64,000 nucleotides of DNA from an uncultured delta proteobacterium (GTDB lineage Bacteria; Desulfobacterota; Binatia; Binatales; Binataceae): contig CAWEEQ010000002.1 of NCBI GenBank assembly GCA_963808235.1, positions 160,001 through 224,000 of the forward strand. The letters run 5' to 3'. Below, in pieces: positions 7,322 to 48,483 of the stretch. Both the position numbers and the translations under genes were made by a program. Below the pieces are notes generated by a model, which worked only from the letters and a program-made list of their open reading frames with translations, was not told the DNA's origin and did not search any database. The stretch's first letter is position 1; each line of letters begins with the position of its first letter.

Positions 7322-7339
7322 TATCGCGCGTCCGGAGAA

Positions 7340-26123: not shown

Positions 26124-26367
26124 GGTTCGCAACGTAGGGGTCGAGAGTTCAAATCCCCTCTGCTCCACACCTCAGTCTCCAGGGTTTCGGACATGGCGGA
26201 GAATCGATCGAAATCCGCGCGTGTGCGCGCGAATTGCGCACATGTGCGGACCCGGAGAATATCTCTGTCGCCCAGAATTGGCCTAATCTGGCGAAACCTA
26301 TCCCGGCGCGATTAGCCTAGGTCCGCGGATCATCGCCATGCATTCGCCTTTTCTTTTTCAGCGCTCC
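26124..26367 (+). repeat. tRNA-headed dispersed repeat, copy 1 (tRNA-Ala(CGC)-like 3' half + ~200 bp body)
   Basis: TTCGCAA..GGGGTC..GTTCAAATCCCCTCTGCTCCAC, then TCAGTCTC..GAGAATCGATCG..TGCGCACATGTGCGGACCCGGAGAA..TCTGGCGAAACCTATC..CTAGGTCCGCGGATCATCGCCATG. Confidence 0.85.
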
Positions 26368-27142: not shown

Positions 27143-29866
27143 ATGCCGACAACGATCCGCAGGATCACAATCGGCAACAATCGGGCTTGGAGATCGATGC
27201 GTACGAATATCCGCCTGGGCTGCGCGGTCTCAATGCTCACATTCTGTGTTTTGGCTTCGTCCACAGTTCGATCCGAAAGCAATCCGGTTCCTATTCCCTC
27301 TCCCGCGGGAAGTCGTGACCAGGCGGTTGACAAGACCGAAGCAGCGCTTCGCGACGAGCTGCGCACGCTAGAAGCGCAAAATCCCAATAGTATTGAGGTC
27401 ACCAAAGATCTCGATCTCCTTGCTTGGTACTATTGGAATCACGGCCGGTTCTCCGACGCTGAACCATTGTTGATACAATCGCTAGCAATCAAGGAGAAGT
27501 CACTGTCGGCAGATGATTCTGCGATCGAGGAGAATATAGATAGGCTTGGGGAACTCTACGCCTGGGAGGGGCGATTCTCGGAAGCGGAGCGACTCCTAAA
27601 TCGCGCGCTCCAGAGCCCGGGTGAAGAAGATGTGGCGAACCCGTGGTTGGCGGGCCGCGCGCACATTTTTCTCGGCACCGTATACCTCGAGGAGGGAAAG
27701 CTGCAAGAGGCGGAAACGTTGCTCAAGCAGGGCCTCGAACTCCGGCTTAGAACCACCACACGAGGCACCGGAATCGAAATTACCTACGATCTACGAAGCT
27801 TGGCCGAATTGTATTGCGAGGAAGGGCGTTTCGCAGAAGCGGAGCCTTTGGGATCCCAAAGTATGAAGCTGAGCGAGCCCAATAGTCTCATATATGCGTA
27901 CGCGCTTGACACGCTCGCTGACGCCTATTACGGCGAGGGCCGGTATGCCGACGCAGAACGTCTATATTCCGAATCGGGTCCAATCCTCCTGCGTCAAATG
28001 GGAGACGCTCACGTCTACTACGAACAGAATTTGGGCTCGCTCGGACTTACGCTCGCGAAGGAAGGAAAAGTCCAGCCGGCGCGGGACAGCTTTCGCAAAT
28101 CATGGGCGGTCAATCTAAATACCTGGCATGCGGCGACGCAGTCGGGCAGCGAGTCTTTGCGTTTTCTCAGGAACAAAAGCGATCAATATGTCCGAGGTTA
28201 TCTGGAATTGCTGGCCGCGATCGCGCGCCATCCAGAAATGGACCCGGGCGGTGCGTCACCGGCACCCGAGGCGTTCATGGTCGCAGAACAAGCGCGCCGG
28301 GGTATCACCGATCTTGCACTGGTCAAAGCGGCGGTGCGGCTTGCAGTCGCCGACCCGGATGCCGGCGAGGCTGCCGCCGAAGTGCAGCGCCTCAGCGAGC
28401 GGCGGGCTGGGATGGCAATGCAGCTTTCGACGCAATTCGGCGCTTCGAAAGAAAATCAGCAAGACGCAGCTAAAGTTCTCGCAGAATCGCAACAGCTTGA
28501 CCATGACCTGGAGATCGCAAACCAGCGACTGATTCAAGTCTTTCCAAAATATGGCGAGTTAGCGACGCCGTTGCCTATCGACGTAGACGGCGTACAACGA
28601 GTACTGCGCGCCGACGAGGCGCTGGTCAGTTACTACACGCTCAACGACCGGCTACTGGCGTGGTGCGTGCGACCCGGTCATCCGCTGGCATATCGCGATA
28701 CCGAAGTTAAGCGCGCAGATCTGATGGCGATGGTCGCGCAGGTTCGCGAGAGCCTTCGTCCCGACAAACCGTTCGACTTCGTTGACTCATACGCGCTCTA
28801 CCAGTTGCTTATAGCTCCGTTGAAAGATGAGCTTGCCAGCACCAAGTTACTTATCATCGTACCGGACGGGGTAACTCTGCCGATTCCTTTCGCCGCGCTG
28901 GTCACTGACAATACGGGCGATGCGTTTGCGGCGTTGGCACGAGATTATAAGCAAGGTCTCGCGCCATCGCCCGCTGAGTTGAAGGACAACTATCCCCGTA
29001 TTGCCTGGTTCGCAAAGAGAAGTATGAGCATTAGTCTCCTACCTACGGCCACTTCTCTCCGACTACTCAGAAATCGGGTCGAAGCGAGCAACACCGCGAA
29101 CGCGTCATCGGCCAAGGCTTACCCCTTCGTCGGAATCGGCGATCCGTTGCTGAACGGCAAGGGCGAAGAGCGTGGTAGCTCGATGGTGGCGACGCGAGGC
29201 GCCGAAGCAATCGACGCGGTGCGGAATCTGCCGAGACTTCCCGGTTCGCGCGAGGAGCTAATGGCTGAAGCTAAGGCGCTCGATGCCAATCCTCAAGAGT
29301 CGCTCTTCATGGAAGAACGGGCGACCCGGCCGCAGGTGCTGGCGCTGAGCAAAGATCGTTTGCGCGACGCAAAGGTAATCTCGTTTGCGACACACGCGCT
29401 CATAGGTGGCGAGATAAAGGGAGTCATGGAACCGTCTCTGGTGCTCACACCACCCTCGCAGCCGAGCACAGACGATGACGGATTGCTTACGATGGACGAC
29501 GTGATGGGATTCAAGTTGGTCGCCGACGAGTGGGTAATCCTCTCTGCCTGCAACACGGCGGCTCCTGACGGAAGTGGCGAAGGACTGTCAGGCCTGACCC
29601 GCGCGTTCTTTTACGCGGGCACTCCATCGCTGCTGGTCTCGCAATGGGCCGTTGATGACGCAGCGACCGATCAGCTGATGACCGCGGTGTTCACGGCTTA
29701 CGGAAGCAGCGGCGGAGTCTCGCGCTCAACGGCGCTGCAGGGAGCGATGCTCAAGCTGATGGACATGCCGCGCACTGACCCGACACACGCCTACTTCGCC
29801 CATCCGTTCGCCTGGGCATCATTCGTCGTAGTCGGCGAAGGCGGCGGTTCTCAACCGACCAAGTGA
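27143..29866 (+). CDS. Exported TPR + CHAT (caspase-like) domain protein
   Basis: Signal-like N-terminus, TPR repeats (GRFSEAE..L), catalytic-type FATHA and LSACNT, SQWAVDD and HPFAWA motifs. Confidence 0.9.
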   Translation: MPTTIRRITIGNNRAWRSMRTNIRLGCAVSMLTFCVLASSTVRSESNPVPIPSPAGSRDQAVDKTEAALRDELRTLEAQNPNSIEVTKDLDLLAWYYWNHGRFSDAEPLLIQSLAIKEKSLSADDSAIEENIDRLGELYAWEGRFSEAERLLNRALQSPGEEDVANPWLAGRAHIFLGTVYLEEGKLQEAETLLKQGLELRLRTTTRGTGIEITYDLRSLAELYCEEGRFAEAEPLGSQSMKLSEPNSLIYAYALDTLADAYYGEGRYADAERLYSESGPILLRQMGDAHVYYEQNLGSLGLTLAKEGKVQPARDSFRKSWAVNLNTWHAATQSGSESLRFLRNKSDQYVRGYLELLAAIARHPEMDPGGASPAPEAFMVAEQARRGITDLALVKAAVRLAVADPDAGEAAAEVQRLSERRAGMAMQLSTQFGASKENQQDAAKVLAESQQLDHDLEIANQRLIQVFPKYGELATPLPIDVDGVQRVLRADEALVSYYTLNDRLLAWCVRPGHPLAYRDTEVKRADLMAMVAQVRESLRPDKPFDFVDSYALYQLLIAPLKDELASTKLLIIVPDGVTLPIPFAALVTDNTGDAFAALARDYKQGLAPSPAELKDNYPRIAWFAKRSMSISLLPTATSLRLLRNRVEASNTANASSAKAYPFVGIGDPLLNGKGEERGSSMVATRGAEAIDAVRNLPRLPGSREELMAEAKALDANPQESLFMEERATRPQVLALSKDRLRDAKVISFATHALIGGEIKGVMEPSLVLTPPSQPSTDDDGLLTMDDVMGFKLVADEWVILSACNTAAPDGSGEGLSGLTRAFFYAGTPSLLVSQWAVDDAATDQLMTAVFTAYGSSGGVSRSTALQGAMLKLMDMPRTDPTHAYFAHPFAWASFVVVGEGGGSQPTK

Positions 29867-29920: not shown

Positions 29921-30514
29921 ATGCGAAGGAGCGTTCGTGAAATACTGGGCGACGGTCTAGTAGGCATTGTCGGCGCCGCGATCGGATTCGGAATTTCTCA
30001 AGGAGTCAACTTTTACAGTTTGTCAAAAACTCTTGAGACCACCAGAGACATCCAGATGGTTAATCTGGCGCGGCAACTCTCGGGCGACTTTGAAGAGAAC
30101 AAGGACTTCGAAGACTTCCGGATGGCTATCGAAAGATGCGACCCGCTGTTCAACGGTTGGCGCTGGCCAGCCGGAAACGGCCCTACAGTCTGGCGGGGAA
30201 GGTTTAACAATGATCAGGTGAACAGATATCTGAACTTTTTCGACGATATAGGATTCTACAATAAACGTGACGATCTCAACCTTGAGATCGTTCGACAGAT
30301 GTTTGGGCCATATGTTGTCGAAGCGTATGAAGAGCCGGAGATAAAGTGCTACATAGAGGGCTTACATACTCAGGCGCATCAGTCTTCGGCCTTCTCGCAT
30401 TTTGTACTATTAGCGCGTGGACTCGAAGCTGCAGAACCTGATCTGGCTGCCTTTGAGCGGAATAAGTTCGCGAAAATCTCTCACTTTGACTGCCCGCTTT
30501 CAGGGAAAAAATGA
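29921..30514 (+). CDS. Membrane-anchored hypothetical protein (DUF4760-like)
   Basis: N-terminal TM; YLNFFDDIG..L...IVRQMFG pattern. Confidence 0.55.
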   Translation: MRRSVREILGDGLVGIVGAAIGFGISQGVNFYSLSKTLETTRDIQMVNLARQLSGDFEENKDFEDFRMAIERCDPLFNGWRWPAGNGPTVWRGRFNNDQVNRYLNFFDDIGFYNKRDDLNLEIVRQMFGPYVVEAYEEPEIKCYIEGLHTQAHQSSAFSHFVLLARGLEAAEPDLAAFERNKFAKISHFDCPLSGKK

Positions 30515-31600: not shown

Positions 31601-31824
31601 TAGGGGCCGGCGGTTCAAATCCGCTTTGCTCCACCATTCAGTCTCTCGATTTTCGGACATCGCGGTAATCGGCGCGTGTGCGCGCGATTTGCGCACATGT
31701 GCGGACCCGGAGAATCTCTCTTGTCGCGCAGAATTGGCCGAATCTGGCGAAACCTATCGCGGCGCGATTTGGCTAGGTCCGCGGATCATCGCCATGGATT
31801 TGCCTCTTCTTTTTTCAGCGCTCC
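31601..31824 (+). repeat. tRNA-headed dispersed repeat, copy 2
   Basis: GGTTCAAATCCGCTTTGCTCCACCA followed by a body closely matching copy 1 through TTTTTCAGCGCTCC. Confidence 0.88.
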
Positions 31825-33968: not shown

Positions 33969-34207
33969 GGCTGTCGTCGGGCAGATGAGAAACTGGGCTT
34001 ACAGTTCAAACCCCTTCTGCTCCGGATTTCAGTCTCCAACTTTCCGGAGATCTCAGAGAATCGATCGAGGTCGGCGGGTGTGCGCGCGATTCGCGATCGA
34101 GCGCGGACCCGGAGAACGCCTAGGTTGGCGCAAATCGGCAAAATCGCGTAAAGACCCATCCAGGCACTATTTTGCTAGGTCCGCGGATCCTCGTCGTAGA
34201 TTCGCCT
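33969..34207 (+). repeat. tRNA-headed dispersed repeat, copy 3 (diverged)
   Basis: AGTTCAAACCCCTTCTGCTCC..TTCAGTCTCC..AGAGAATCGATCGA..GTGTGCGCGCGATT..GCGGACCCGGAGAA..GCTAGGTCCGCGGATC. Confidence 0.75.
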
Positions 34208-35043: not shown

Positions 35044-35144
35044 GGCTGTCGTCTGGCTGACGAGAAAAGGGGCTGAAAGTTCAAACCCACTCTGCTCCAC
35101 ATTTCAGTTTTCCAGGGTTTCGGACATCCCAGAGAATCGATCGA
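35044..35144 (+). repeat. tRNA-headed dispersed repeat, copy 4 (truncated, abuts integrase 3' end)
   Basis: GGCTGTCGTC..GAGAAA..AGTTCAAACCCACTCTGCTCCAC..TTCAG..TCCAGGGTTTCGGACAT..GAGAATCGATCGA, after which similarity stops. Confidence 0.75.
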
Positions 35145-35167
35145 GCGCGCTCGTGAAACCTAGGGAA

Positions 35168-36346
35168 CTAGCCGTTGAGGATCGTGTCCATTTTGTCGGC
35201 CATATCCTGCATCATAGATGGCATGACGTGGCTGTAGGTATTGGCTGTCAGAGCGATCGTGCTGTGACCAAGGAGTTCCATGATTGCCCGGAGCTGAACG
35301 CCTTGGGCTAGCAATAGGCTTGCAGCGCTGTGGCGCAAATCATGAAACCGGGTTGATAGCGGAATCTTGGCGTCAGCTTCGGGTCCGTTGGCCTTCTCCA
35401 GAATCCGCTTGAAGTCTCTGACGGCAGAACGCGGCTCTATCGGCGTTCCGATTCCGGTCGTGAAGACGAGTCCGCGCTCGGTCCATCCGAAACTGGCGAT
35501 AAGGCGTTCTTGAAGCTGGCGCGCACGATGAGCGCGTAGTGATCGAACGAGCGCATCGGGTATTCGCAGAGTTCGCCTGCTACGGTCCGTCTTCGGCTCG
35601 ACAAATTGGAGCCTGCCGGGACCTGTTCCGAATCGCTTGCCGCCCACTCGCTGCAGCGATTGCCGAATCGTAATTTGCTGCCGTTCCAGGTCCACGTCCA
35701 TCCAGCGCAGCCCGAGTGCCTCGCCCTCGCGAAGTCCGAGCCCGAGCGCCACGCTGTACAGTGCTTCGAGCCGTTCGCCTTTGGCTGCATCAAGGAATTT
35801 GCGCGACTGATCGAGATCCAGGGGTTTGATCTCCGGGCGCCGAACCTTCGGGGTATCAACGAGCTTGGCGACGTTGCGGCCGACGAGGCTCCACTTCACC
35901 GCAGTCTGAAGGGCGTGCCGAAGGATTACCAGACTGAGCTGGACTGTGCGCGGCGAAAGGTCGCTCTTGAGCCTTTCGTTCACGAAGGTCTGAACATGCT
36001 GAGGCGACAGTTTCGAAAGCCGTTGCTTTCCCAGTGAGGGCCCTAGGTAAAGTCGAACATGCTGATGGTACTGCTGATACGTTGCCGGGCGAACGCTTGA
36101 TTTCACGGAGTCCTCAAGCCAGTGGTCGAGGAATTCTTTGACCGTCTGTAGCTCGACCGACACCGGAAGGCCGCGAGACTGGTCGAAACGCGCTTTGAGC
36201 AGCTCGTCTCGTACCTCAGCGGCTGTCGCGGCGTAAAAGTGCCTTCGTTTACGCTTGCCGCCTTGCCAGCCCAGATTGAGAGAGCCGACCCAGCGCCCAT
36301 CCTTGCGCTGGAAGATCGAACCCTCGCTTGTTCCGCGCTTCGCCAT
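35168..36346 (-). CDS. int: Tyrosine integrase
   Basis: Arm-binding N-terminus (EGSIFQRKDGRW), GLREGEALGLRW, KT, FHDLRHSAAS and LGHS...TANTYSH. Confidence 0.96.
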   Translation of the reverse strand: MAKRGTSEGSIFQRKDGRWVGSLNLGWQGGKRKRRHFYAATAAEVRDELLKARFDQSRGLPVSVELQTVKEFLDHWLEDSVKSSVRPATYQQYHQHVRLYLGPSLGKQRLSKLSPQHVQTFVNERLKSDLSPRTVQLSLVILRHALQTAVKWSLVGRNVAKLVDTPKVRRPEIKPLDLDQSRKFLDAAKGERLEALYSVALGLGLREGEALGLRWMDVDLERQQITIRQSLQRVGGKRFGTGPGRLQFVEPKTDRSRRTLRIPDALVRSLRAHRARQLQERLIASFGWTERGLVFTTGIGTPIEPRSAVRDFKRILEKANGPEADAKIPLSTRFHDLRHSAASLLLAQGVQLRAIMELLGHSTIALTANTYSHVMPSMMQDMADKMDTILNG

Positions 36347-36350
36347 GAAA

Positions 36351-37304
36351 TCAGCGCTTGGTAATCCACCTTTTGACCTGCTCGACGCCGGTATCGAGAC
36401 GCTTTGCAATTTCCCGAACTGAGAACTTTTTATCGCGGAGCTGGCGAGCCTCGATTTTTCGGTCCGAATACAATCTGATGCGACATGCGTTCGAGCAGGT
36501 CTTTCGATTCGTTCGGTACCCTGATCCTTCCGCTGCCACTAGCATCGGCTTTCCGCAGCTTTCGCAAAGACGAAACTTCTGATGACCAGCGATCGCGTCT
36601 GCGAGTTGAAGCCAAAGACAACCGATCAGGGTGCTTGGGACAATGAACAGACCCATTTCGTTGCTATCTGGAGCTTTCCAAAGGAGACGGGAAGAGACCA
36701 ACTCAGCCAGAGACTTGTTGACCACTTCCTGTAGGTAGAACCGCGCCGGCTTCAGTACATCGCCGCGCTGAAACCTCTCGAGAAGGTGCGAATTTATTCC
36801 AGGCGCCGCTATCGTGGCGTGGGTGCTCCACGGGGTGTTCAATTCGCTCGATGGCGGCCAGTCGTACGTTATGTGATCGCGGCGCCGCCAATGGATGCAG
36901 CTAGCGAGTACTGACGAGTTCTCGGCCTTAATAGCTTCCCAGAGCGTGACCGCGGCCTTCATTCCGTGAAGATGTTCCTGCCAATGAGATCGTAGTTCCC
37001 CGGTTACGGCGGTCGTGCTCGCGCCTTTGCGTTCCGGTTCCGGCGCGATCCATCGAGGACCGCGTCCGAGCAATCCGTAGCTGTTCGCGAAGTGAAGGAT
37101 CTCGACATCGGCATTTGGGTCAATGCTTGCGAACTTCAAAAAGAGGTCGGGATCGGGCTTGTACGGCCGCGAATTTTCGCCGAGTGCGATTAAAGCCGGT
37201 TCGTCGTGTTTCCGGACGTTGGCTCCGAACACCCGAATTGGGCCGCTTCGCCATTCGTGCCCGTCTTCCGCGACTTGCCAGATGAATTGAAAGAGTTCGT
37301 ACAT
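36351..37304 (-). CDS. CGNR-type zinc finger + C-terminal HTH protein (putative regulator)
   Basis: LWLQL..FRLCESCGK..RKTCSNACR followed by SVREIAKRLDTGVEQVKRW. Confidence 0.7.
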   Translation of the reverse strand: MYELFQFIWQVAEDGHEWRSGPIRVFGANVRKHDEPALIALGENSRPYKPDPDLFLKFASIDPNADVEILHFANSYGLLGRGPRWIAPEPERKGASTTAVTGELRSHWQEHLHGMKAAVTLWEAIKAENSSVLASCIHWRRRDHITYDWPPSSELNTPWSTHATIAAPGINSHLLERFQRGDVLKPARFYLQEVVNKSLAELVSSRLLWKAPDSNEMGLFIVPSTLIGCLWLQLADAIAGHQKFRLCESCGKPMLVAAEGSGYRTNRKTCSNACRIRLYSDRKIEARQLRDKKFSVREIAKRLDTGVEQVKRWITKR

Positions 37305-39149: not shown

Positions 39150-39240
39150 CGGGTAGGGGGTCAAAATCTCTGGGAGTCGGAGAACGTTGACCATTGGCTG
39201 GCTTCACGCGTGTGGCCGCAAGTTAGGGGGTAGGGGGTGT
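39150..39240 (+). other. cos-like packaging region
   Basis: GGGTAGGGGGTCAAAATCTCTG..GACC..TCACGCGTGTGGCCGCAAGTTAGGGGGTAGGGGG resembles the sequence preceding P27-type terS in cos phages (pattern recognition only). Confidence 0.5.
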
Positions 39241-39247
39241 CGGTGGG

Positions 39248-40573
39248 GTGGTCGATATAACAAGCAAAACTATTCGCGATCGAATTTTGGAACTGCGCCG
39301 GGTTGCCGCACGTGACCTGGTGCCCAATCCGAAAAATTGGCGGCGGCATCCAGCGCGCCAAGCAGCGGCGCTGCGCGGCCTTCTACAGGAAATCGGCTAC
39401 GCTGACGCGCTTCTAGCACGCGTATTGCCCGACGGCCGTCTGATGTTGATCGACGGTCACCTCCGCGCGGAGACCACGCCCGACCGATTGGTGCCTGTGC
39501 TGGTGCTCGACGTCGATGAAAACGAATCTCACAAGCTGCTGGCAACTCTCGATCCGCTGGCAGCGATGGCAGAGACCGACAAGCTCGCCTTCAAGGACCT
39601 GGCTGGTTTCGTCCAGACCGACAGCGCGGAGCTGCGCGAGCTGCTCGACGGCACGGCTGGTATCGCGAGGGAGACTCAACAGGACGCGATTCCCGCGCTT
39701 CCGGTAACCCCAGTGGCGCGGTTGGGCCAAATCTGGCAACTCGGCAAGCACCGCCTTCTATGCGGCGATTCTACGCGCCCGGGCGAAGTCGCGCGCCTGA
39801 TGGGCGAGGAACGGGCCGTCCTGTTCCAAACCGACCCTCCCTATGCCGTTGGCTACACCGGAGGGTCGCATCCGGCGACCAGAGCGAATCGCGGCAAGGC
39901 GAATCGAAACAAAGACTGGTCAGGCCAGTATCGCGAAGCGGCACCATCTCCGGATATCGAAAGCAACTCCGAACTCGGCCGCGAGTTCTATCTTCGATTC
40001 ATTATGGCCGCTATCGAACGCGCGATCGCGCCAAACGCAGCCTTTTACTGCTGGCACGCGAGCGCACGCCAGGCGATGCTCGAGGCGGTCTGGAACGAAG
40101 TCGGCGCGTTCATGCATCAGCAGATCATTTGGGTGAAGAGCCGGCCGGTACTGACTTATTCGATCTACATGTGGGCTCACGAGCCGTGCATGTTCGGCTG
40201 GATCAAGGGCCAGAAGCCCGAGGTCGAACGCAAGCAGGAAGGTGGGTATCCGTCTACGGTCTGGGAAGTTCCTAGTGCCGAGATCGAAACCAACGAGCAT
40301 CCGACCTCGAAACCGAATCGGCTCTTCGCGATCCCGATGGAGCTACACACAAGTCCGAATGACCTCTGTTACGAACCGTTTAGCGGCAGCGGGTCGCAGC
40401 TGATCGCGGCAGAGCAACTCGGTCGCCGCTGCTATGCGATCGAGCTGGAACCCCGCTTCGTCGACGTTGCGATCTCGCGATGGGAGAAACTGACCGGTCA
40501 GAAAGCTGAAGTGATTGGAGAGGAGGAGGTAGACGCGGATGAAGACACCAGGACCACCGCCAACACCGACTAA
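39248..40573 (+). CDS. ParB-like domain + N4/N6 DNA methyltransferase (phage type)
   Basis: PNPKNWRRH..IDGHLR (ParB-like); HRLLCGDS, TDPPY, HPTSKP and EPFSGSGS (beta-class MTase). Confidence 0.92.
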   Translation: MVDITSKTIRDRILELRRVAARDLVPNPKNWRRHPARQAAALRGLLQEIGYADALLARVLPDGRLMLIDGHLRAETTPDRLVPVLVLDVDENESHKLLATLDPLAAMAETDKLAFKDLAGFVQTDSAELRELLDGTAGIARETQQDAIPALPVTPVARLGQIWQLGKHRLLCGDSTRPGEVARLMGEERAVLFQTDPPYAVGYTGGSHPATRANRGKANRNKDWSGQYREAAPSPDIESNSELGREFYLRFIMAAIERAIAPNAAFYCWHASARQAMLEAVWNEVGAFMHQQIIWVKSRPVLTYSIYMWAHEPCMFGWIKGQKPEVERKQEGGYPSTVWEVPSAEIETNEHPTSKPNRLFAIPMELHTSPNDLCYEPFSGSGSQLIAAEQLGRRCYAIELEPRFVDVAISRWEKLTGQKAEVIGEEEVDADEDTRTTANTD

Positions 40574-41018
40574 TTTGAAGCTGCTTAGAGGGAACCCCGG
40601 CAAACGGAAGCTGAACGCGAATGAACCCGATCCTGCACCATCGATCCCGCCTTGCCCCAGTCATCTCGATAAAGTCGGCAAGAAAGAGTGGCGCAGAATC
40701 AGCAAGGAACTATTTGCGCTGGGGATAATCTCGAAGCTGGATCGCGCCGCACTCGGCGGTTACTGCGACGCGTACGGGCGGTGGGCGGAGGCGGCACTAC
40801 AAATTCAGAAATACGGTCTGGTTTTCAAATCGCCGAGCGGCTACCCGATGCCGTCGCCATATCTTGCGATTCTTCATACGGCGCTTGACCAAATGCGCGC
40901 TTTCCTCACTGAATTCGGATTGAGTCCCGCCTCGCGCTCGCGCGTGAAGGTCGCCAATCCCAAACAACGCGACCTGTTCAGCGATTTTCTCGATCTCGAT
41001 GACGAAGATGCGGGGTGA
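40539..41018 (+). CDS. terS: Phage terminase small subunit, P27 family
   Basis: GPPPTPT.LKLLRGNPGKR, EWRR, YCDAY and EFGLSPASRSRV motifs. Confidence 0.92.
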   Translation: MKTPGPPPTPTNLKLLRGNPGKRKLNANEPDPAPSIPPCPSHLDKVGKKEWRRISKELFALGIISKLDRAALGGYCDAYGRWAEAALQIQKYGLVFKSPSGYPMPSPYLAILHTALDQMRAFLTEFGLSPASRSRVKVANPKQRDLFSDFLDLDDEDAG

Positions 41019-41208
41019 AACCGATTATTCACGCGATGAGCGCGCCTCGGGTCTATCTTTGGGCTGTTGCTCATTGTTCCCTTGTCAGAATTGCAGCTGG
41101 CCGAGAAGCGAATTCGAAGCTACTGCCACTTCGTCAGCTGAGGAATCCGTGCCGGGAGTGGTTTCTCGCCGCCATGAAAGGCAACGGGCGCAGAGGCTCT
41201 TCTAAATT

Positions 41209-42540
41209 GTGAAGCGACTATCCTATAAAGGTGAGCGAATGAAGGCGTTTCGTCCATATGTCGGCAGCTTGCACGAGCTTCTGAAACGGTCGACGCGCCT
41301 ACCGGCCCAGATCAATTCCAAAGCGGATATCGAGGCCGCACTAGACGGACAGCCAGCAGCCGAATTACGCCGCTGCGTTTCCGTAAAGCGCCTTCGCGCT
41401 GCGGGCGCTTTCTTTACCGGCTCGGCCATGGCTCACCGCGCGATTGCGGCCGCCGGTCTTTCGCAGCTGAAGCGCGATGCAACCGTGTTGGATCCAGCCT
41501 GCGGCGTCGGCGACCTACTCGTGGCTCTGGTCGAGCATTTGCCCCGATCCAACGATTTCCTTTCCACTCTCTCCGATTGGGGCGGTCGGATATTGGGCCG
41601 CGACGTTCAGGCGGAGTTTGTTAAGGCAACCAAACTTCGACTTGCGCTCGCAGCAATTGGCGCGGAACCGCTTCGGCGCGCCCTTCAGCTGCCGAGAATC
41701 CGCGAGCTCTTTCCAGGAATCACCGCGGGTTCAAGTTTGACCGGCGACGACAGTTTTGGAGCGGCTTCGTACATTCTCATAAATCCTCCCTTCACCCAGG
41801 TTCCCGCTCCCGCGGATTGCGCATGGGGTTCGGGAAAAGTGAATTCCGCCGCGTTGTTCCTGGACGCATGCGTGACTCGATCCGAGCCAGGAACTCGTAT
41901 CGTCGCAATTCTTCCAGACGTTCTTCGAAGTGGCTCGCGCTACGAGAGGTGGCGAAGCCTCTTTCAACGTCGCGTTGATCTTAGCAAAGTCGAAATCGTC
42001 GGCCGATTTGACCGCTACGCCGACGTTGATGTTTTCATAGCCGTTGGAACCATCAGAAAGAAAATAAGTGCGACCGGTAAGGCGAATTGGACTCCATCTG
42101 AGAAAGACAACGGGAGTACTATCGGTGAACGGTTTGATGTATCTGTGGGCGCCGTAGTGTCTTATCGAGATCCACGTCGCGGACCGTGGCATCCGTTTAT
42201 TCAGGCGCGCGGAATACCCGCTTGGGATGTGGTGAGCTCTATATCAGACCACCGCAGGTTTAGGGGAAGAACATTTAAGCCCCCGTTTGTCGTCGTCAGA
42301 CGCACTTCTAGGCCGGGAGACAAACATAGAGCAGTGGGCACCCTCATCCGGGGACAGAGTTCAGTTGCAGTGGAAAACCATTTGTTAGTTCTCAAGCCGA
42401 ACGACGGTACCTTGGCAACGTGTCGCCGACTGCTAGCTCTACTTCAGCAGAACGGGACGACTGATATGCTCGACAGGCGCATCCGCTGCCGGCATTTGAC
42501 CGTATCGTCGCTGCGCGAATTGCCTTGGAGAGACGCGTGA
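41209..42540 (+). CDS. N6-adenine DNA methyltransferase (gamma class) with C-terminal TRD
   Basis: GAFFT, LDPACGVG (motif I), INPPF (motif IV) and a C-terminal FVVVRRTSRP segment. Confidence 0.88.
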   Translation: MKRLSYKGERMKAFRPYVGSLHELLKRSTRLPAQINSKADIEAALDGQPAAELRRCVSVKRLRAAGAFFTGSAMAHRAIAAAGLSQLKRDATVLDPACGVGDLLVALVEHLPRSNDFLSTLSDWGGRILGRDVQAEFVKATKLRLALAAIGAEPLRRALQLPRIRELFPGITAGSSLTGDDSFGAASYILINPPFTQVPAPADCAWGSGKVNSAALFLDACVTRSEPGTRIVAILPDVLRSGSRYERWRSLFQRRVDLSKVEIVGRFDRYADVDVFIAVGTIRKKISATGKANWTPSEKDNGSTIGERFDVSVGAVVSYRDPRRGPWHPFIQARGIPAWDVVSSISDHRRFRGRTFKPPFVVVRRTSRPGDKHRAVGTLIRGQSSVAVENHLLVLKPNDGTLATCRRLLALLQQNGTTDMLDRRIRCRHLTVSSLRELPWRDA

Positions 42541-43712
42541 CGAATACCTCAGCGGCCCTCAGATTTTCGCCAGACATTTTGAGACGCTTGGGTGAAGAGC
42601 TCAACCCGAGCCTCGACCAAAGTATTCTTGAACTCGTTAAGAATTCGTTTGACGCGGACGCTAGAGACTGCGCCATTGTTTTGAAGAAGACGGACAGCCC
42701 GGGCGGGTCTATTGAAATTTCCGACAACGGCGACGGAATGGACGCCGAAGGAATCTTGAACGGATGGTTAATTCTTGGGCATTCAAGTCGAAACCCAGAG
42801 CAACGCACCCGTCTAAACAGGGTTCCGGCGGGCAGTAAGGGTTTGGGGAGGCTGGCCGCCCTTCGGCTCGGCGGCGCCGCGACTCTCAGAAGCCGACCCA
42901 AAGGAGATGCAAAGCGAGAATATCGTCTGCGAATCGATTGGTCGCGCTACGATGCCGCCCCCGTAGTCGAAGATGTACCGCTATCAGTTGAGGAACTTGC
43001 CAGACCTATTGGCAGCTCGGATGGCACCGACATCACGATTGAAAATCTCCACGCGACCGTCAGCCGTGCCGAAGTCAAACGGCTCGCGCGATCGCTCATC
43101 CTGCTCGCTGATCCTTTCGACGATAATCCAGAAGGCTTCAAGCCAGTCCTGCAGGCTCCCGAATTTTCAGACTTGGAGGCTGTTGTAGAAGCTCGCTACT
43201 TTAAAGATGCGGAGCTTCATTTGATTGCTACCGTCGACAGGAATGGTCGGGCACAAGCTAAAATAGTTGATTGGAAGGGCAAGGCGCTCTTCACTGCGAA
43301 GCACCGGGACATGAGCAACCGCGGAGAAGACCTCCGCTACAAATGCCCCGAAGCGACCTTCGACCTCTGGGCCTTCATTCTCAACGCCGATACTTTTGCC
43401 ACTCGGACCTCAACCATTGATGAAGTGCGCGAATGGTTGAAGTTCTTTGGCGGAGTTCACCTTTACCAGAATGGGTTACGCGTAAGCCCCTATGGGAATC
43501 CAGGAAACGACTGGCTCGACATGAACCTTAGACGGTCGCAGAGCCCTGAAGAGAGGCCTTCGACTAATAACTCTATCGGTAGAGTTTCTATTCAGGAGAC
43601 TGAGGGACTCTTGGTCCAGAAGACCGATCGCTCAGGCTTTATCGAGGGTGACTCCTTCATTGAGCTCAAACGCTTCGCTACAGACGCGCTCGAATGGATG
43701 GCACGACGTTGA
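42537..43712 (+). CDS. GHKL (MORC/Hsp90-like) ATPase; N-terminal part of an ATPase-histidine kinase fusion ending at an in-frame TGA
   Basis: ELVKNSFDA, DNGDGM, GSKGLGRLA, GT and GV.LYQNGLRV.PYG..DWL; GTGA overlap with the MTase stop. Confidence 0.88.
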   Translation: MTNTSAALRFSPDILRRLGEELNPSLDQSILELVKNSFDADARDCAIVLKKTDSPGGSIEISDNGDGMDAEGILNGWLILGHSSRNPEQRTRLNRVPAGSKGLGRLAALRLGGAATLRSRPKGDAKREYRLRIDWSRYDAAPVVEDVPLSVEELARPIGSSDGTDITIENLHATVSRAEVKRLARSLILLADPFDDNPEGFKPVLQAPEFSDLEAVVEARYFKDAELHLIATVDRNGRAQAKIVDWKGKALFTAKHRDMSNRGEDLRYKCPEATFDLWAFILNADTFATRTSTIDEVREWLKFFGGVHLYQNGLRVSPYGNPGNDWLDMNLRRSQSPEERPSTNNSIGRVSIQETEGLLVQKTDRSGFIEGDSFIELKRFATDALEWMARR

Positions 43713-44609
43713 ATGCGCGAGGCCCAGAAGAGGCGCGGCAAGGAACGGCGCGAAACCCCTCAGCGATCAACCGAGGCCAAACTCAAGATAAAGGAGGCGA
43801 TCAAACGTCTTCCCGGCAAAAAGGGCCAAGCCGTCGAACAAGCATTCGACAAGTACGAGAGTTTTCGTGACAAGGAGGTTAAGACATTACGTAAAGAGGT
43901 ATTGCTCTACAGGACTCTGAGCACCGCTGGAATCACGGCTGCGACCTTTGCTCACGAGTCAGCGGGCAATCCTATCAAGGCGATTGACCAGGCGGCCAAG
44001 TCTGTGCAGAGGCGAGCGCGGAAAGAGTTGGGAGAGAAATATGATCAGCTCCTTTCGGAGCCCATAGATTTGATCATCCGCTCCACGGATGCGTTGAAGG
44101 TGTTAGGAAACGTAACGTTTAGTCTACTGGACCATGAAAAGCGGCGCTCTTCTCGAGTTGAAGTCCATAAGGTAATCGAATCGGTGATAAGAACATACAA
44201 GCCGTTCACTCAAGAACGCGACGTTAAGATTGTACCTCGACTCGCTAGTGGGAATCCGTATCTGAGAGGAAGCGAAGCGGCCATCGAATCGATTGTCACA
44301 AATTTCCTAAACAATAGTCTAGTCTGGTTCGAGAAGGTGCATGAGAAAAAGCGCGAGATTCTGATCCGTACCGAAACCACGAACAGCACTCTAAAGTTGG
44401 AATTCGCTGATAGTGGGCCTGGAATAGAAGGAATCGATGTCGAAGACGTTTGGCTCCCGGGGGAGACAACCCGACCAAACGGTACCGGATTGGGCCTCGC
44501 AATTGTTCATGACACCGTCGAGGATCTGGGAGGTAGTGTTAAAGCTTTCCCTCGCGGTGAATTGGGCGGGGCCACGTTCTTAGTTGAAATACCGATCTTG
44601 GGGACGTGA
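43713..44609 (+). CDS. Histidine kinase (phospho-His + HATPase_c), same frame as the upstream ATPase
   Basis: FAHES H-box, NFLNNS N-box, DSGPGI and GTGLGL. The ATG immediately follows the upstream TGA. Confidence 0.88.
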   Translation: MREAQKRRGKERRETPQRSTEAKLKIKEAIKRLPGKKGQAVEQAFDKYESFRDKEVKTLRKEVLLYRTLSTAGITAATFAHESAGNPIKAIDQAAKSVQRRARKELGEKYDQLLSEPIDLIIRSTDALKVLGNVTFSLLDHEKRRSSRVEVHKVIESVIRTYKPFTQERDVKIVPRLASGNPYLRGSEAAIESIVTNFLNNSLVWFEKVHEKKREILIRTETTNSTLKLEFADSGPGIEGIDVEDVWLPGETTRPNGTGLGLAIVHDTVEDLGGSVKAFPRGELGGATFLVEIPILGT

Positions 44610-44610
44610 A

Positions 44611-45285
44611 ATGTCAAGAACAATTCTCGGCCAAGAAATTTCACGCGTGAAAATCATTGATGACGACCCAGCCGCAAGAGGCGCGATGGTATTCACAGTG
44701 ACCGACGCGGATTTTCTGGCCCTGCCCGACGATGGTCCTCTGCCGAAGCTGGAAGAGTTTGTCCAAAGTGCCAAACAGTCGGTGGATGCTGTCGTATGCG
44801 ATCACCGCCTCAAAGGCACTTACGCAAAGTTTAATGGAGCGGAGGCGGCAGCGCACCTTTACAAAGAAAAGTGCCCGGCCGTGCTGTGCACGCGCTGGAA
44901 CACAGCCGACATCGATGCAATGCGCCAGTACCTTCGGTACATTCCATCTCTTCTATCAACCGACAATGTGGACCCCGAAACCATCGCCGGTGGGATTGCT
45001 CGATGCATCCAGGAGTTCAACAATGACCCCCCTCCAAGCCGAAAGCCTTGGCGTACTCTCCTTGCGGTAGAATCGGTGGCCTCAGACCTGCTTCCGCCTT
45101 TGTTTTATGTTGCGATCCCTGGTTGGGACTCAAAGGAAATCGTACGTTTGCAGCTCGATCTCATTCCCGAGGATCAAAGATTTCGAGTTCAACCTGGATA
45201 TCGTTTCTTCGCAGCTGTGAACAAGGGAGCAGAGCGCCCTGAAGAACTGTTCTTTTCAGACTTCGAGTTTCCGAAGAAGGGGTGA
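44611..45285 (+). CDS. Atypical response regulator: receiver + small C-terminal beta-rich domain
   Basis: IIDDD, VCDHRL (phospho-Asp), NGAE and VLCT; no HTH output domain. Confidence 0.8.
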   Translation: MSRTILGQEISRVKIIDDDPAARGAMVFTVTDADFLALPDDGPLPKLEEFVQSAKQSVDAVVCDHRLKGTYAKFNGAEAAAHLYKEKCPAVLCTRWNTADIDAMRQYLRYIPSLLSTDNVDPETIAGGIARCIQEFNNDPPPSRKPWRTLLAVESVASDLLPPLFYVAIPGWDSKEIVRLQLDLIPEDQRFRVQPGYRFFAAVNKGAERPEELFFSDFEFPKKG

Positions 45286-46274
45286 TGCCAATGGGCGAGC
45301 CGACCCTCTCGATTCTAGATGTGGGCCACGGAAACTGCGCCGTTCTCGTCGACGACAAAGTCGTAGTGATTGATGCAGGCCCCGGAACAACTCTGTTGGA
45401 GTTTCTGGAGAGGGAAGGAATTAAAGAAGTCAGTGTAGTGCTTGTCTCTCACGCTGACGAAGATCACGTCAAAGGGTTGGTAGGCTTGGTCGAGTCTCAA
45501 GCCGTCACTATTAGCACCATCCACGTCAATTCCGACGCCATCAAAGAGTCGGCGACGTGGAGTCACCTAGCGTATTTGTTGGATGAGGAAAACAAGGCGG
45601 GACATATACGGTTCGAGGTCGGCCTGACGACGAATCACTCGGATCAATTCAGTACAGCGTCGATCACCGTGGAAATCCTAGCGCCCTCTCCAGGCATCGT
45701 GATGAAGGGTGTGGGCAGTCACGATCATAAGGGCAGAAAACTGACTAGCAACACCATGAGCGCGGTGGTGCGTCTGCTACGAGAAGGTACCCCTCTCGTA
45801 CTGCTTCCAGGCGATCTTGATGAGACCGGCTTAGAAAACTTAATAGAGTCCGGTCGGGACCTGCACGCTGCGATAGCTATCTTTCCCCATCATGGCGGAG
45901 GATCGGCCGGTAGCGATCTGTCCCAATTCGCTTCGACATTCTGCTCAGCAACCACTGCGCGAATCTTAATCTTTTCGATAGGCCGAGGCAGATATGGGAC
46001 GCCTCGGCCGGAAATCATCGCCGCCGCGCGCGCTCATTCGACCAACCTGCGCGTACGCTGTACTCAACTTTCCGAACACTGCGCGAGTGAATTGCCCAAG
46101 TCCGACCCGACTCATTTGACCGACAAGATTTCCAGAGGCCGGGAGCTACGCAAGTGTTGTGCTGGTACACTCGTACTGAACCTAGGAAAAAATCCTGTTC
46201 TTCTTCCGATGGCAGAAGCACATCTGCAGTTCATTTCGGACTCAGCACCGTCCGCTCTTTGCACGAAGTCTTAA
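45282..46274 (+). CDS. ComEC/Rec2-type MBL-fold nuclease-like protein (soluble)
   Basis: LDVGHGNC, IDAG, SHADEDH, LPGD, PHHGG and SIG..YGTP motifs; Cys-rich tail; GTGA overlap with the regulator. Confidence 0.85.
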   Translation: MMPMGEPTLSILDVGHGNCAVLVDDKVVVIDAGPGTTLLEFLEREGIKEVSVVLVSHADEDHVKGLVGLVESQAVTISTIHVNSDAIKESATWSHLAYLLDEENKAGHIRFEVGLTTNHSDQFSTASITVEILAPSPGIVMKGVGSHDHKGRKLTSNTMSAVVRLLREGTPLVLLPGDLDETGLENLIESGRDLHAAIAIFPHHGGGSAGSDLSQFASTFCSATTARILIFSIGRGRYGTPRPEIIAAARAHSTNLRVRCTQLSEHCASELPKSDPTHLTDKISRGRELRKCCAGTLVLNLGKNPVLLPMAEAHLQFISDSAPSALCTKS

Positions 46275-46366
46275 GCGGCCTCTCAGTGAGGAAGCGCAAG
46301 CAGCGTCAATCCGCACCAAGATTACTGAGAAGGGCTCAAAGATCGAGGCCGGTCCCGAAGTGCTCG

Positions 46367-46663
46367 TTAGGCAAGCGCGACCGACGCACGCGCGCCAAGC
46401 GATGGGAGTAGCCGGACGAAGATATTGACTACGCGGCGAAGGATCTGGATCGTTCGGACGTAGTCAACCCGCGCGAAGTTGGCATAGTCAGCGAAGTCTT
46501 CGCCGTCGTCAGTGACTACTTGCGGCGGAGCGACCCCATCCCATGGCAGCTTGCCCACTTCACCGATTTCCTGATCCGTCATAGGACTTACAGTTCCGCT
46601 CTCGTTGAGGTCAGTAAAGAGGTTCCATCTCAGCGCCGGCGCGCGGAGCTGACCTTTGGCCAT
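46367..46663 (-). CDS. Hypothetical protein or gene fragment
   Basis: Open frame with protein-like composition; no motif recognised. Confidence 0.3.
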   Translation of the reverse strand: MAKGQLRAPALRWNLFTDLNESGTVSPMTDQEIGEVGKLPWDGVAPPQVVTDDGEDFADYANFARVDYVRTIQILRRVVNIFVRLLPSLGARASVALA

Positions 46664-46780
46664 TCCCGGACAACATCGCCTCGCCCTCCGGCAGTGACAT
46701 AGTCGTCTTCATCGTGTGGTCTAGGCTTGGCACGCCGCTGCCTGAGAAGACGGCGCTGATCCTCGGTGAAAAACCGTCTC

Positions 46781-48265
46781 TCACTTTCCGGCGCTCTCGC
46801 CGTCGGCCTTCAGGTCGGCGAGGAGATTTTGGTAGACCTGCGACTGATCGAGAATTTCGCCGGCAGCCTGCTCGAGTCGCTGAATGTCTTCGTCCGGCAG
46901 TTGCAAAGTCGTTGGTATCGCCTGGAGCGCGGCGCGCTCTGCAGGCTTGCTGATCGCTCCGAATTGGACATGAATTTCGTAGTACTTGGGAACCCGCGGG
47001 CGGAATGCGTCCGTCGCGTTAAGTGCGAGGTAACATTGCTGCTGATGATCTTGTTGACAGCTATGGCCGCTCGACCCTTGGCATAGCTCACTGGCGAGAT
47101 TATCGCAGTCCGACTTTCTCGTCTGGTAATCTTCCAAGGCCTTTCGCTGCTCTTCGATAAAAAGCCGCAACGACTCGATGGTATCGAATGAGTAGTTGTC
47201 AATCGGGTTGGTGGCTGACGCCTCGAGCACGGTCGTGAACAGTGGCCGTCGCGAAGACTGATCGATCGCGCCTAGGCTCCCAGACTTGGCGTCGACGACG
47301 ATCATGACCACGCGTTCCACCTGCTTCTTATCCAGCACGTGCCAAGGCGAATCGGTGCTGCTAAGCGAGACTTCGGGCCCGCGAAGTCCGATGTTATCAG
47401 CGATTCCGCCGTCGCTCAGATGGATGTACGGCCGCGCAGCTGAGTCTTCATATGACGTCCAGATCTCGGCACGATGGAAGCGCGTCGGATTGAGCTCGAA
47501 GTCCTGCAGGGCGCCGGTGACCAATAGCGGCCTGCTGGATCCGCACTCCCGCTGCCCGTAGTTCTTCAACGTGATCGGAGTGAACGCAACCGGGAACGCC
47601 GATGAAGCCAACACCCCGCGAGCGACCGGAATTCCCTGAAGATCGGAACAGATAAGATCGAAATCGTCCTGGCTGAAACTGAATCCGGCTCCCGTCGTGA
47701 GGTCGGTGGCGTTGAGAATCACGTATGGACGGCGGCGGGGCATGTCGGCATAGGTACGGCCGTCGAAGATGTAATCGTTGTAGTACTTCTCTGCCAAATC
47801 GCTTCGACCGTACAGCAGCATGTCAGGCCAGTTCCACGGTGCGGCGATTCTGAGCAGAACATCACGTTCGATCTGCCGCTCCAGAACATCGCGGTGGAAG
47901 TCTTGTAGGAATTTGTCCTTGCCGAAGAGCCCCAGGTAAGCCGCGGCGAAGCTCCCTCCTGAAACCGATGAAATCACATCGACTTCATCGAGCAGCGTCG
48001 TACCGCTGCGGTCGAGTTTTACGCGGCTCATGTGCTCAGCCACGCCATAGGCCAGCGCGGCTGCCCGAGTGCCGCCGCCGGACATGGTAACGATGATGAA
48101 GTTCTTTTCGGTGTTGTTCGCTGGTGTTTCGGTCAGGTTGCGGTAACGATATCCGCGCTTGGCAGCGAGGTCGTCTCGCGAGAGGGGCGGGTTGACCCGA
48201 TATAGCCCGCAAGCAGTGACAAAAAAGACTACGAAAACCGCGGCACTGATCGCGAGTCGCCTCAT
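46781..48265 (-). CDS. Patatin-like phospholipase, lipoprotein
   Basis: Lipobox VTAC; SGGGTRAA, SSVSGGS nucleophile elbow, ASSAFP and DGG motifs. Confidence 0.9.
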   Translation of the reverse strand: MRRLAISAAVFVVFFVTACGLYRVNPPLSRDDLAAKRGYRYRNLTETPANNTEKNFIIVTMSGGGTRAAALAYGVAEHMSRVKLDRSGTTLLDEVDVISSVSGGSFAAAYLGLFGKDKFLQDFHRDVLERQIERDVLLRIAAPWNWPDMLLYGRSDLAEKYYNDYIFDGRTYADMPRRRPYVILNATDLTTGAGFSFSQDDFDLICSDLQGIPVARGVLASSAFPVAFTPITLKNYGQRECGSSRPLLVTGALQDFELNPTRFHRAEIWTSYEDSAARPYIHLSDGGIADNIGLRGPEVSLSSTDSPWHVLDKKQVERVVMIVVDAKSGSLGAIDQSSRRPLFTTVLEASATNPIDNYSFDTIESLRLFIEEQRKALEDYQTRKSDCDNLASELCQGSSGHSCQQDHQQQCYLALNATDAFRPRVPKYYEIHVQFGAISKPAERAALQAIPTTLQLPDEDIQRLEQAAGEILDQSQVYQNLLADLKADGESAGK

Positions 48266-48483
48266 TAGACTTTGGTGAAGACAATTTTCATCGGATTGGC
48301 CGGTATCGTCCCCGTTACCCTGCACCAGTCGGTCGCTGGCCGGTAGTTGAGCGGCTGCCCGAGATTGAAATAATGAGTGCCTTCCTCGAGTTCAAACATT
48401 TCGTTTGTGGTCGCGACCGAGTCATCGCCGTCGTCGACGAACACGTCGCGGGCGTCTGTAAACTCAACGATGACATACTCCAT
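48265..48483 (-). CDS. Small beta-rich (PEGA-like) protein
   Basis: VFVDD..TN..FELEEGTHYF; TAATG coupling with the patatin gene. Confidence 0.6.
   Translation of the reverse strand: MEYVIVEFTDARDVFVDDGDDSVATTNEMFELEEGTHYFNLGQPLNYRPATDWCRVTGTIPANPMKIVFTKV

Follow-up and report, generated by a model that had tools for sequence, protein, structure and literature searches.

A mobile four-gene cassette of adenine methylase, dual-GHKL kinase, receiver and ComEC-type hydrolase, probably a relative of the Ambrosia anti-phage system

The window analysed here is a 64,000-nucleotide stretch from an uncultured delta-proteobacterium of the Binataceae (assembly GCA_963808235.1, contig CAWEEQ010000002.1, positions 160,001 to 224,000 of the forward strand), and at its positions 41209-46274 it carries a cassette of four genes encoding an N6-adenine DNA methylase, a dual-GHKL sensor kinase with a MORC-like ATPase at its N-terminus, a receiver protein and a soluble hydrolase with a metallo-beta-lactamase (MBL) fold of the ComEC type. 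With a probability that we put at roughly 0.6, this is a widespread, mobile cassette that protects its carrier, be it a cell, a prophage or a plasmid, against phage or foreign DNA, working in a manner like that of restriction-modification (R-M) systems and gated by a two-component phosphorelay. Intact motifs and predicted folds make the four activities plausible, and from these, and from the relatives and genomic settings described below, we infer the defence function and mechanism of this MBL-type cassette.

Gene content of the cassette

Five consecutive open reading frames (ORFs) occupy 41209-46274 on the + strand and correspond to four genes in relatives. The original prediction, made from the letters of the window, was of a co-oriented operon with overlapping or abutting starts and stops, and this could be read directly at all junctions: a GTGA at 42537-42540 joins the methylase stop to the kinase start, the kinase stop (TGA 44607-44609) is followed after 1 base by the receiver ATG at 44611, and a second overlapping GTGA at 45282-45285 joins the receiver and MBL genes. 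The predicted content of methylase, GHKL ATPase, histidine kinase, receiver and MBL protein was likewise supported by family matches, motifs and folds. The most hydrophobic 19-residue stretch in the four proteins (Kyte-Doolittle 1.44) falls short of what a membrane helix would need, and a promoter and terminator scan of 40400-47000 gave counts at or below those of shuffled sequences.

The first gene (41239..42540, +) encodes a gamma-class N6-adenine DNA methyltransferase, recognised from PADLOC and Pfam matches and from its motifs. Its frame is open from GTG 41209 (a 443-amino acid (aa) frame), which had at first been taken as the start, but the start is most likely ATG 41239, giving 433 aa, because homologues begin there and an AAGGTGA resembling a Shine-Dalgarno sequence lies just upstream. 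The protein matched the PADLOC profiles MTase_II (4.8e-11) and mad2 (1.2e-10), with a weak match to Pfam N6_Mtase (E 1.6e-3). Across 58 sequences D95 and G99 of the DPACGxG motif (95-101) and N192-P193-P194 of the NPPF motif (192-195; 443-aa numbering) were invariant, and the order is that of the gamma class, with motif I before motif IV (NPPF) and a conserved C-terminal part of 240 residues thereafter.

The second gene (42537..44609, +), assigned from Pfam, NCBIfam and conserved residues, encodes the dual-GHKL sensor kinase and is interrupted in the window by an in-frame TGA at 43710-43712, which is all that separates the second and third frames; these are in phase and the ATG at 43713 abuts the stop. 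The MORC-like ATPase and a middle domain are encoded by 42537-43709 (a piece of 391 aa in the window), and a coiled linker, a DHp domain with the H-box FAHES and a CA domain by 43713-44609. The N-terminal half matched HATPase_c_3 (E 4.2e-18) and the C-terminal half HATPase_c (E 5.8e-11) in Pfam, with an AtoS/ZraS-like kinase core matched by NCBIfam in the C-terminal half and kinase cores from the PDB aligning with profile positions ~441-687, so that a soluble architecture of HATPase_c_3, DHp and HATPase_c is present. The Bergerat residues of the N-terminal ATPase (E36, N40, D43, D67, G69, G71 and G103-G108) were invariant, and this putative sensor domain is apparently a catalytically competent ATPase of the MORC/MutL type. 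Invariant in the kinase core were H477-E478, N593, N597, D629, G633 and G653-L658 (H-box and N, G1 and G2 boxes).

When the gene was read through the stop (X at the stop position) and used as a query, 2545 proteins were matched at E<=1e-3 among 8000 scored candidates, and the best 120 matches were nearly all single proteins of 685-713 aa with PF13589 and PF02518, the exception being the window's own 391-aa piece. In 77 of 79 loci, too, a single open frame spans both halves, the two exceptions being the closest relative, L002, where a stop precedes the real start (ORF 7013-9079, 689 aa), and L071, which is frameshifted. Thus the GHKL ATPase and histidine kinase content proposed for the two ORFs stood, but their separation into two genes did not, as relatives have a single protein of ~690 aa.

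The receiver protein (44611..45285, +; 224 aa) consists of a CheY-like (beta-alpha)5 domain (residues 1-139) followed by a conserved, beta-rich C-terminal domain (147-219). The match to Response_reg in Pfam was weak (E 3e-3), but the AlphaFold2 (AF2) model is confident (pLDDT 95.4) and its best match by Foldseek and VIA was 3jte (Z 12.9, root mean square deviation 3.0, 121 residues, over residues 2-138). The (beta-alpha)5 order, an acidic pair after beta1 and a phospho-acceptor Asp after beta3 were all found, and among 71 sequences D18, D64, G76, R144 and N204 were invariant and D17 near-invariant; phosphotransfer to this protein is, judging from its residues, plausible but not certain. Residues 147-219 form five strands and one short helix (beta1-3, helix, beta4-5) in the AF2 model, with no helix-turn-helix (HTH), bearing out the prediction of a receiver without a DNA-binding HTH output, and Trans_reg_C, HTH or any other DNA-binding family was not matched in the receiver even at E<=5. 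The Foldseek and VIA matches cover residues 1-139 only, residues 140-224 gave no usable match in the ESM Atlas, and a profile of the C-terminal domain found among PDB sequences just two designed proteins (E 4e-4) and noise. From the strand order alone, an OB- or SH3-like barrel would fit as a candidate fold for this domain.

The fourth gene (45282..46274, +) encodes a soluble, ComEC-type MBL-fold hydrolase of 330 aa with a Cys/His-rich C-terminal part. It matched Lactamase_B in Pfam (7.4e-11) and TIGR00361 ComEC_Rec2 (5.3e-7), and the top Foldseek match of its AF2 model (pLDDT 95.6) was 9ic4, the beta-lactamase-like domain of Moorella glycerini ComEC (E 2.5e-19, TMt 0.79). H57, D61, H62, D178, H203 and H204 were invariant, with D59 and, near the C-terminus, four Cys and a His (C260, C267, C293, C327 and H314) near-invariant. 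Its metal-binding motif is intact, and the protein is presumed to be a nuclease. No PD-(D/E)xK or HNH family was matched in the operon in Pfam, PADLOC and NCBIfam scans, agreeing with the predicted lack of a classical restriction nuclease, and so the operon does not have the make-up of a classical type II R-M system, in which a methylase is paired with a PD-(D/E)xK or HNH endonuclease acting on the same site. Nor, as had been expected, was there a full PADLOC system match for the operon, as neither the kinase core nor the receiver is represented by a PADLOC model.

Conservation and spread

One genome per species was scanned, giving 276 kinase relatives from which 80 loci were kept for synteny. 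By tblastn the receiver and MBL genes lie downstream of the kinase in 76 of the 80 loci, the contigs of the other four breaking off at the kinase or within it, and the methylase lies upstream in 73 (directly adjacent in 72). The conserved four-gene synteny that the original prediction proposed to look for is therefore very strong, and the four genes are inherited as a unit. Of the seven loci lacking this methylase, an Eco57I-like methylase lies downstream in one and a BsuBI/PstI R-M pair upstream in another, while a third is found directly behind an Hma-like helicase and a methylase. In the Spirochaetia locus L034 (443-10717) the trio of kinase, receiver and MBL genes begins 3 nucleotides (nt) after an Hma-like SNF2 helicase gene (HmaA 1.8e-92) preceded by an HmaB-like methylase, which suggests that the trio can be combined with other methylase systems.

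By record title, carriers belong to the Acidobacteriota, Planctomycetota, Latescibacterota, Bacteroidota, Verrucomicrobiota, Chloroflexota, Actinomycetota, Spirochaetota, Gemmatimonadota, Myxococcota and Pseudomonadota, with kinase identities of 40-60%. At E<=1e-30 the receiver family falls into 407 clusters (50% identity), of which the 150 listed consist without exception of stand-alone proteins 213-241 aa long. Of 60 genomes related to that of the window, the cassette was found in 1 of 36 of the same genus and 0 of 24 of the same class; it is accessory and mobile and not part of a core gene set. Decayed copies occur, with stops in the methylase (L023, L073), receiver (L008, L023) or MBL gene (L029) and the kinase frameshift of L071. 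In an Opitutales locus (L047, 9008-10353) ~1.3 kb is inserted between the kinase and receiver genes, and in L028 a 460-aa ORF lies between those for the methylase and the kinase.

Mobile context

Within the window, an island of ~11 kb with integrase, ParB-methylase and small terminase genes carries the cassette as its right-hand cargo. A tyrosine integrase gene lies at the left end of the island (35171..36409, -; Phage_integrase 9.6e-22, phrog_1 5.3e-74) and beside it lies a tRNA-3'-end-like repeat (35078..35146, +), one of four copies in the window with 0 expected by chance, which is a probable left attachment (att) site; a right-hand att copy of the island was not found in the window. To the left of the cassette are genes for a phage-type protein with a ParB-like nuclease domain and a DNA methyltransferase (39248..40573, +; N6_N4_Mtase 1e-15, phrog_498 1.2e-84) and for a phage small terminase subunit of the P27 family (40539..41018, +; Terminase_4 7.2e-29, phrog_83 3.3e-51), and the island holds no capsid or large-terminase genes. 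A block at 39151..46295 (+) is common to the window and L002 (86.5% nucleotide identity by blastn); it comprises the ParB-methylase, small terminase, a 68-aa ORF and the cassette, and ends 21 nt past the MBL stop.

The kinase was also found in 6 predicted viral contigs of IMG/VR, 5 of them with all four genes, and 45 flanking ORFs of five contigs were scanned (L116, almost a duplicate of L115, was omitted). The cassette lies between the integrase and an excisionase/repressor in L111, after tail, endolysin, spanin and phage methylase genes in L112 and L113, between the repressor and integrase in L114, and, in L115, next to the portal gene within a head module like that of P2; the cos-proximal region between gpA and the portal has been described as a defence hotspot of P2-like phages (PMC9122126). 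In INPHARED no phage record reaches 80% coverage of the kinase. A full-length kinase is present on four plasmids, and in the two that were opened the genes are annotated, in order, as an N-6 methylase or type I M subunit, an ATP-binding protein or sensor kinase, a response regulator or hypothetical protein, and an MBL hydrolase. Both the island genes in the window and the prophage positions support the suggestion that the cassette travels as cargo of phage-derived elements.

Such settings would also be expected if the cassette served the element itself, as an addiction or exclusion module degrading host or competitor DNA upon loss or induction of the element, with the methylase as antidote. 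The occurrence in prophages, in the small-terminase island and on plasmids, the toxin-antitoxin genes that adjoin the cassette on a Burkholderia plasmid, its patchy distribution (as in the counts for the window's genus and class) and its occasional decay in the five loci named above are all consistent with this. Simple post-segregational killing, however, needs no relay from kinase to receiver, and exclusion of competitors is itself anti-phage defence that differs mainly in who benefits, and so we regard a purely element-serving role as quite unlikely.

A cruder look at the defence gene content of the neighbourhood showed no enrichment. PADLOC models were matched at E<=1e-10 by 17 of 120 nearest-neighbour ORFs from 31 loci, including Cas1, SIR2, type IIG R-M, HmaA/B/C and PDC-S28, compared to 10 of 100 control ORFs at the same threshold, taken from two carrier genomes (six arbitrarily chosen regions of 20 kb), where the matches were mostly to generic ATPase and regulator models.

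The in-frame stop codon in the kinase gene of the window

The TGA at 43710..43712 (+) stands where an invariant Arg is expected, this position being Arg in 23 of 23 aligned homologues and encoded by CGA in L002. A copy from the same genus (G700) has no stop in the kinase, and one TGA was found in the window genome itself (G000). Contigs from four public runs of one study were inspected, each run leaving most of 43300-44100 uncovered, and base 43710 was covered by a single contig (151 nt, depth 2.3, run X4), which reads C and is otherwise identical; because a depth of 2.3 is too low, this C cannot separate a strain-level nonsense allele from a consensus error. The TGA is one or the other, and this copy is therefore broken, is expressed in two halves by use of the ATG that adjoins the stop, or owes its stop to a mis-call in the assembly. 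Selenocysteine insertion or other recoding was considered and rejected, given that Arg is found at this position in all homologues and is encoded by CGA in the closest relative. The string GTYGAA (43707-43712) includes the disputed base and in its C version contains TCGA, and if the assembly was made from long reads, a methylation-linked base-calling error at 43710 would be conceivable, though this is speculation.

For the window copy only, there is thus the alternative that it is a dead remnant, its kinase killed by a nonsense mutation within an island decaying without capsid or large-terminase genes, and we give this slightly less than an even chance. It would account for the replacement of an invariant Arg, for an island reduced to integrase, ParB-methylase, small terminase and small ORFs, and for the missing right-hand att copy. 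Yet the other four reading frames are intact with every catalytic residue kept, the ATG directly after the stop means that both halves could be made, and the 151-nt contig, which comes from a different run of that study, has C (Arg) at this base, although at depth 2.3 this last point is weak. The window copy itself is less interesting because its kinase reads as interrupted, but intact copies are available in cultured, non-pathogenic bacteria and on plasmids, candidate carriers by record title being Chryseolinea sp. H1M3-3, Demequina aestuarii NBRC 106260, Microbacterium tenebrionis YMB-B2, Albitalea terrae S-16 and the Hymenobacter volaticus plasmid.

Proposed function and mechanism

If the cassette acts in defence as we propose, the MORC-like module would engage DNA and report foreign or abnormal DNA, possibly including its methylation state. 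The kinase core would then autophosphorylate on the histidine of FAHES and pass the phosphate to Asp64 of the receiver, and the phosphorylated receiver would, via its beta-rich C-terminal domain, switch on the MBL nuclease by contact or by recruitment to DNA and not by transcription. The nuclease would degrade the invader and the methylase would spare the DNA of the carrier.

Two of these steps need to be read against Ambrosia, a system of methylase, kinase, receiver and nuclease that protects Pseudomonas aeruginosa PAO1 and loses this protection in a receiver D60A mutant, according to the preprint describing it (bioRxiv 10.1101/2025.09.30.679545). The same preprint reports that methylation by the Ambrosia methylase, AbrA, gave phage no protection, and because of this the self-marking step should not be assumed by analogy for the cassette. 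It further reports that the Ambrosia region is barely expressed until infection and is then induced, the relay acting via transcription (bioRxiv 10.1101/2025.09.30.679545).

Accordingly, a relay working as in Ambrosia has to be considered, whereby the phosphorylated receiver would raise expression of methylase and nuclease upon infection, its C-terminal domain binding DNA or RNA polymerase, with no regulation by contact. That low expression before infection and the need there for the receiver Asp speak for such a relay, and a small barrel that binds nucleic acid would be compatible with the order of the strands (beta1-3, helix, beta4-5). Against it, the receiver model has no HTH or winged helix and matches no DNA-binding family at E<=5, an XRE partner is absent, and the genes form one coupled operon, so that a promoter would be needed upstream of the methylase, where nothing promoter-like was found (a weak test). 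We consider transcriptional control by this receiver unlikely.

A more specific form of the proposed post-translational mechanism can be put forward tentatively, and we doubt it more than we believe it: the cassette would be a two-component restriction enzyme, in which a MORC-like clamp meeting unmethylated DNA fires the relay, and the beta-barrel of the receiver docks on the nuclease and unlocks it within seconds, with no transcription. Were this true, restriction would be licensed by phosphotransfer and a bacterial MORC-type ATPase would be the sensor of a kinase, with a spread over many phyla and prophage hotspots far wider than that of Ambrosia. The cassette offers a tractable system in which to ask what bacterial MORC-like ATPases sense and whether a His-Asp relay gates a nuclease directly.

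Several observations count against the proposed defence function or its steps. The receiver has no conserved Lys at the usual beta5 position, Ile-Pro112 filling the usual place of Lys-Pro, and Thr94 is merely the majority residue among the 71 sequences. Four of the 80 loci have no methylase of any kind nearby, and the kinase copy of the window has its premature stop. MBL hydrolases also cut RNA, phosphodiesters and small molecules, and the second fold match of the MBL protein was the phosphorylcholine esterase Pce (E 3.2e-13). The crude PADLOC neighbour count showed no clear enrichment of defence genes over the control, and so the defence-island enrichment that had been proposed as a check did not materialise. 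Finally, given what is reported for Ambrosia, the self-marking and post-translational steps may both be wrong.

Some of these points would suit a role outside immunity, with the cassette as a methylation-linked signalling or repair module whose MBL protein hydrolyses RNA, a nucleotide signal or a phosphodiester and whose MORC-like kinase reports the state of the chromosome. The catalytic versatility of the MBL fold and the unremarkable neighbour count leave room for it, and bacterial MORC-like ATPases are described as poorly understood (PMC8011034). We nonetheless think it very unlikely: by fold the MBL protein matches a DNA nuclease domain best, with a lead of six orders of E-value, the cassette, being accessory and mobile, sits in prophage cargo positions, and it is homologous to an HNH-type cassette on the plasmid pBM374-1 (described below). 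Defence gated by a phosphorelay remains our preferred explanation.

Other features of the window

The tRNA-3'-end-like copies lie at 26146-26166, 31612-31632, 34003-34070 and 35078-35146 (+), downstream of an Rfam tRNA match at 25931-26014 (30.4 bits); ARAGORN found no tRNA in the window. These four repeats split the region into successive segments, which looks like tandem islands at one att site. One repeat-bounded segment encodes a 907-aa protein with TPR and CHAT-protease domains (27143-29866, +; CHAT 9e-49), followed by a DUF4760 protein (29921-30514, +), and the two may be another conflict-type gene pair. Outside the cassette block, the window and L002 share a perfect match of 49 nt (23674-23722, -, against 3367-3415 of L002).

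Downstream of the cassette, on the opposite strand, is a gene for a patatin-like phospholipase (46781-48325, -); a patatin-like phospholipase gene also lies directly upstream of the cassette on a Hymenobacter volaticus plasmid (L083, 3960-5264), possibly by coincidence. Further along are a 768-aa ORF (48982-51288, -) with no match in Pfam, NCBIfam or PADLOC, and a gene for an RHS-repeat protein (59941-61461, -; RHS_repeat 3e-19), possibly a polymorphic toxin locus.

Comparison with known systems

Full-text literature searches for a defence system of kinase, receiver, methylase and MBL protein brought up nothing beyond the CoCoNuTs papers and the Ambrosia preprint. Individual parts of the cassette have recognisable counterparts. 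The MBL protein shares with the ComEC domain (9ic4), its best fold match, the H-x-D-x-D-H and HH metal motifs, but unlike ComEC it is soluble and stand-alone, has no OB or membrane competence domains, and bears an extra conserved Cys/His-rich C-terminus in a defence-like operon. Over its N-terminal 175 residues the kinase matches the ATPase end of the GHKL restriction enzymes BbrUII/HgiDII (NF050001, E 2.6e-20; PADLOC REase_II 1.9e-12), although at 72.5 bits, far under the family cut-off of 550; those enzymes are single proteins with their own nuclease, whereas the C-terminal half of the window protein is a histidine-kinase core.

In Detocs, as its preprint describes it (bioRxiv 10.1101/2023.01.24.525353, Rousset et al.), a phosphorelay triggers an effector without transcription and the effectors are swappable, endonucleases being among them. 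A His-Asp phosphorelay serving as an anti-phage switch with a non-transcriptional output is thus a feature of Detocs and is what we propose for the cassette. The two differ in that Detocs, in the same account, combines a TPR sensor kinase with a buffer receiver (DtcB) and with an effector that is fused to a receiver, and has no methylase or MORC-like ATPase, whereas the window cassette has one receiver and a separate effector gene; no PADLOC model of Detocs was matched in the window operon.

Closer in architecture are the kinases described by Bellieny-Rabelo et al. 2021 (PMC8011034), in which HATPase_c_3, HEF_HK and HATPase_c domains are combined and which lie beside Response_reg_2 proteins near R-M genes. 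In that paper the HEF_HK family is tied mainly to C5 methylases, Vsr and HNH_2 (PMC8011034), and examples with this type of linkage are found on B. glumae and C. jejuni plasmids. The window kinase resembles these as described in having a soluble paraMORC-like N-terminus, a DHp domain with His-Glu and a C-terminal HATPase_c, in adjoining a stand-alone receiver-like gene and in its link to DNA methylases. However, the window kinase and receiver did not match PF19191 (HEF_HK) or PF19192 (Response_reg_2) at E<=5, and the terms "lactamase" and "MBL" are absent from the main text of PMC8011034. Paralogous dual-GHKL kinases of 720-790 aa were also found in genomes of the order Pseudomonadales (L096-L099) and on plasmids (L100, L101), adjoining C5, Eco57I-like N6 or N6_N4 methylases and partner proteins of 340-415 aa, mostly without a Pfam match. 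Because these paralogues adjoin different methylases and partners, the kinase would thus appear to belong to a wider modular family.

The nearest characterised counterpart is Ambrosia. As given in its preprint (bioRxiv 10.1101/2025.09.30.679545), it consists of an XRE regulator (AbrR), an N6 methylase (AbrA), a kinase/HSP90-like ATPase (AbrB), a receiver with a winged HTH (AbrC) and a type IV HNH nuclease (AbrD), and is reported in Gammaproteobacteria only. It was set against the cassette by this published description and by a look-alike locus. That look-alike, on the Klebsiella variicola plasmid pBM374-1, has the published gene content of Ambrosia: besides an N6 methylase and a dual-GHKL kinase, which is broken, it has genes for a REC-like protein of 168 aa and an HNH protein of 224 aa (E 3.4e-4), and an HTH_3 gene. 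Its methylase shares 39% identity with that of the window over 394 aa (E 1e-94) and its kinase pieces are 26-38% identical to the window kinase, but its REC-like protein has no BLASTP similarity to the window receiver, from which it follows that methylase and kinase are common to both while the receiver output and the nuclease have been swapped. The HNH protein of pBM374-1 was found in 0 of 401 sampled genomes of its class and, among plasmids, matches only itself, and a search for Ambrosia in 301 sampled genomes from the order of a carrier labelled Pseudomonadales returned only the paralogous kinases beside other methylases.

The cassette and Ambrosia, as described, agree in having an N6-adenine methylase, a kinase/HATPase, a receiver and a nuclease in that order, mixing R-M with two-component logic, and the domain content of the window kinase (HATPase_c_3 and HATPase_c) fits the description of AbrB. 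They differ in the effector, a ComEC-type MBL hydrolase in the window and a type IV HNH in Ambrosia, and in the receiver, which has a beta-rich domain in the window and a winged HTH in AbrC. The cassette also spans many phyla and has no XRE regulator; no HTH family was matched, as a HipB-like XRE would require, in the upstream ORFs 40999-41202 and 41015-41209 (E<=5) or elsewhere in the operon. The claim that no characterised counterpart exists could therefore not be upheld, with Ambrosia experimentally validated and pairs of HATPase_c_3-DHp-HATPase_c kinases and receivers beside R-M genes already described (PMC8011034).

The cassette is thus not wholly new but is distinct in its effector (MBL), its receiver output (no HTH) and its lack of an XRE regulator, and it is probably an uncharacterised relative of Ambrosia of an MBL type. 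If it does defend its carriers, the principle seen in Ambrosia, of R-M parts placed under a two-component relay, would reach beyond the Gammaproteobacteria to a family with members in 276 species-representative genomes and with 407 or more receiver clusters from many phyla, with a different nuclease and a non-transcriptional output.

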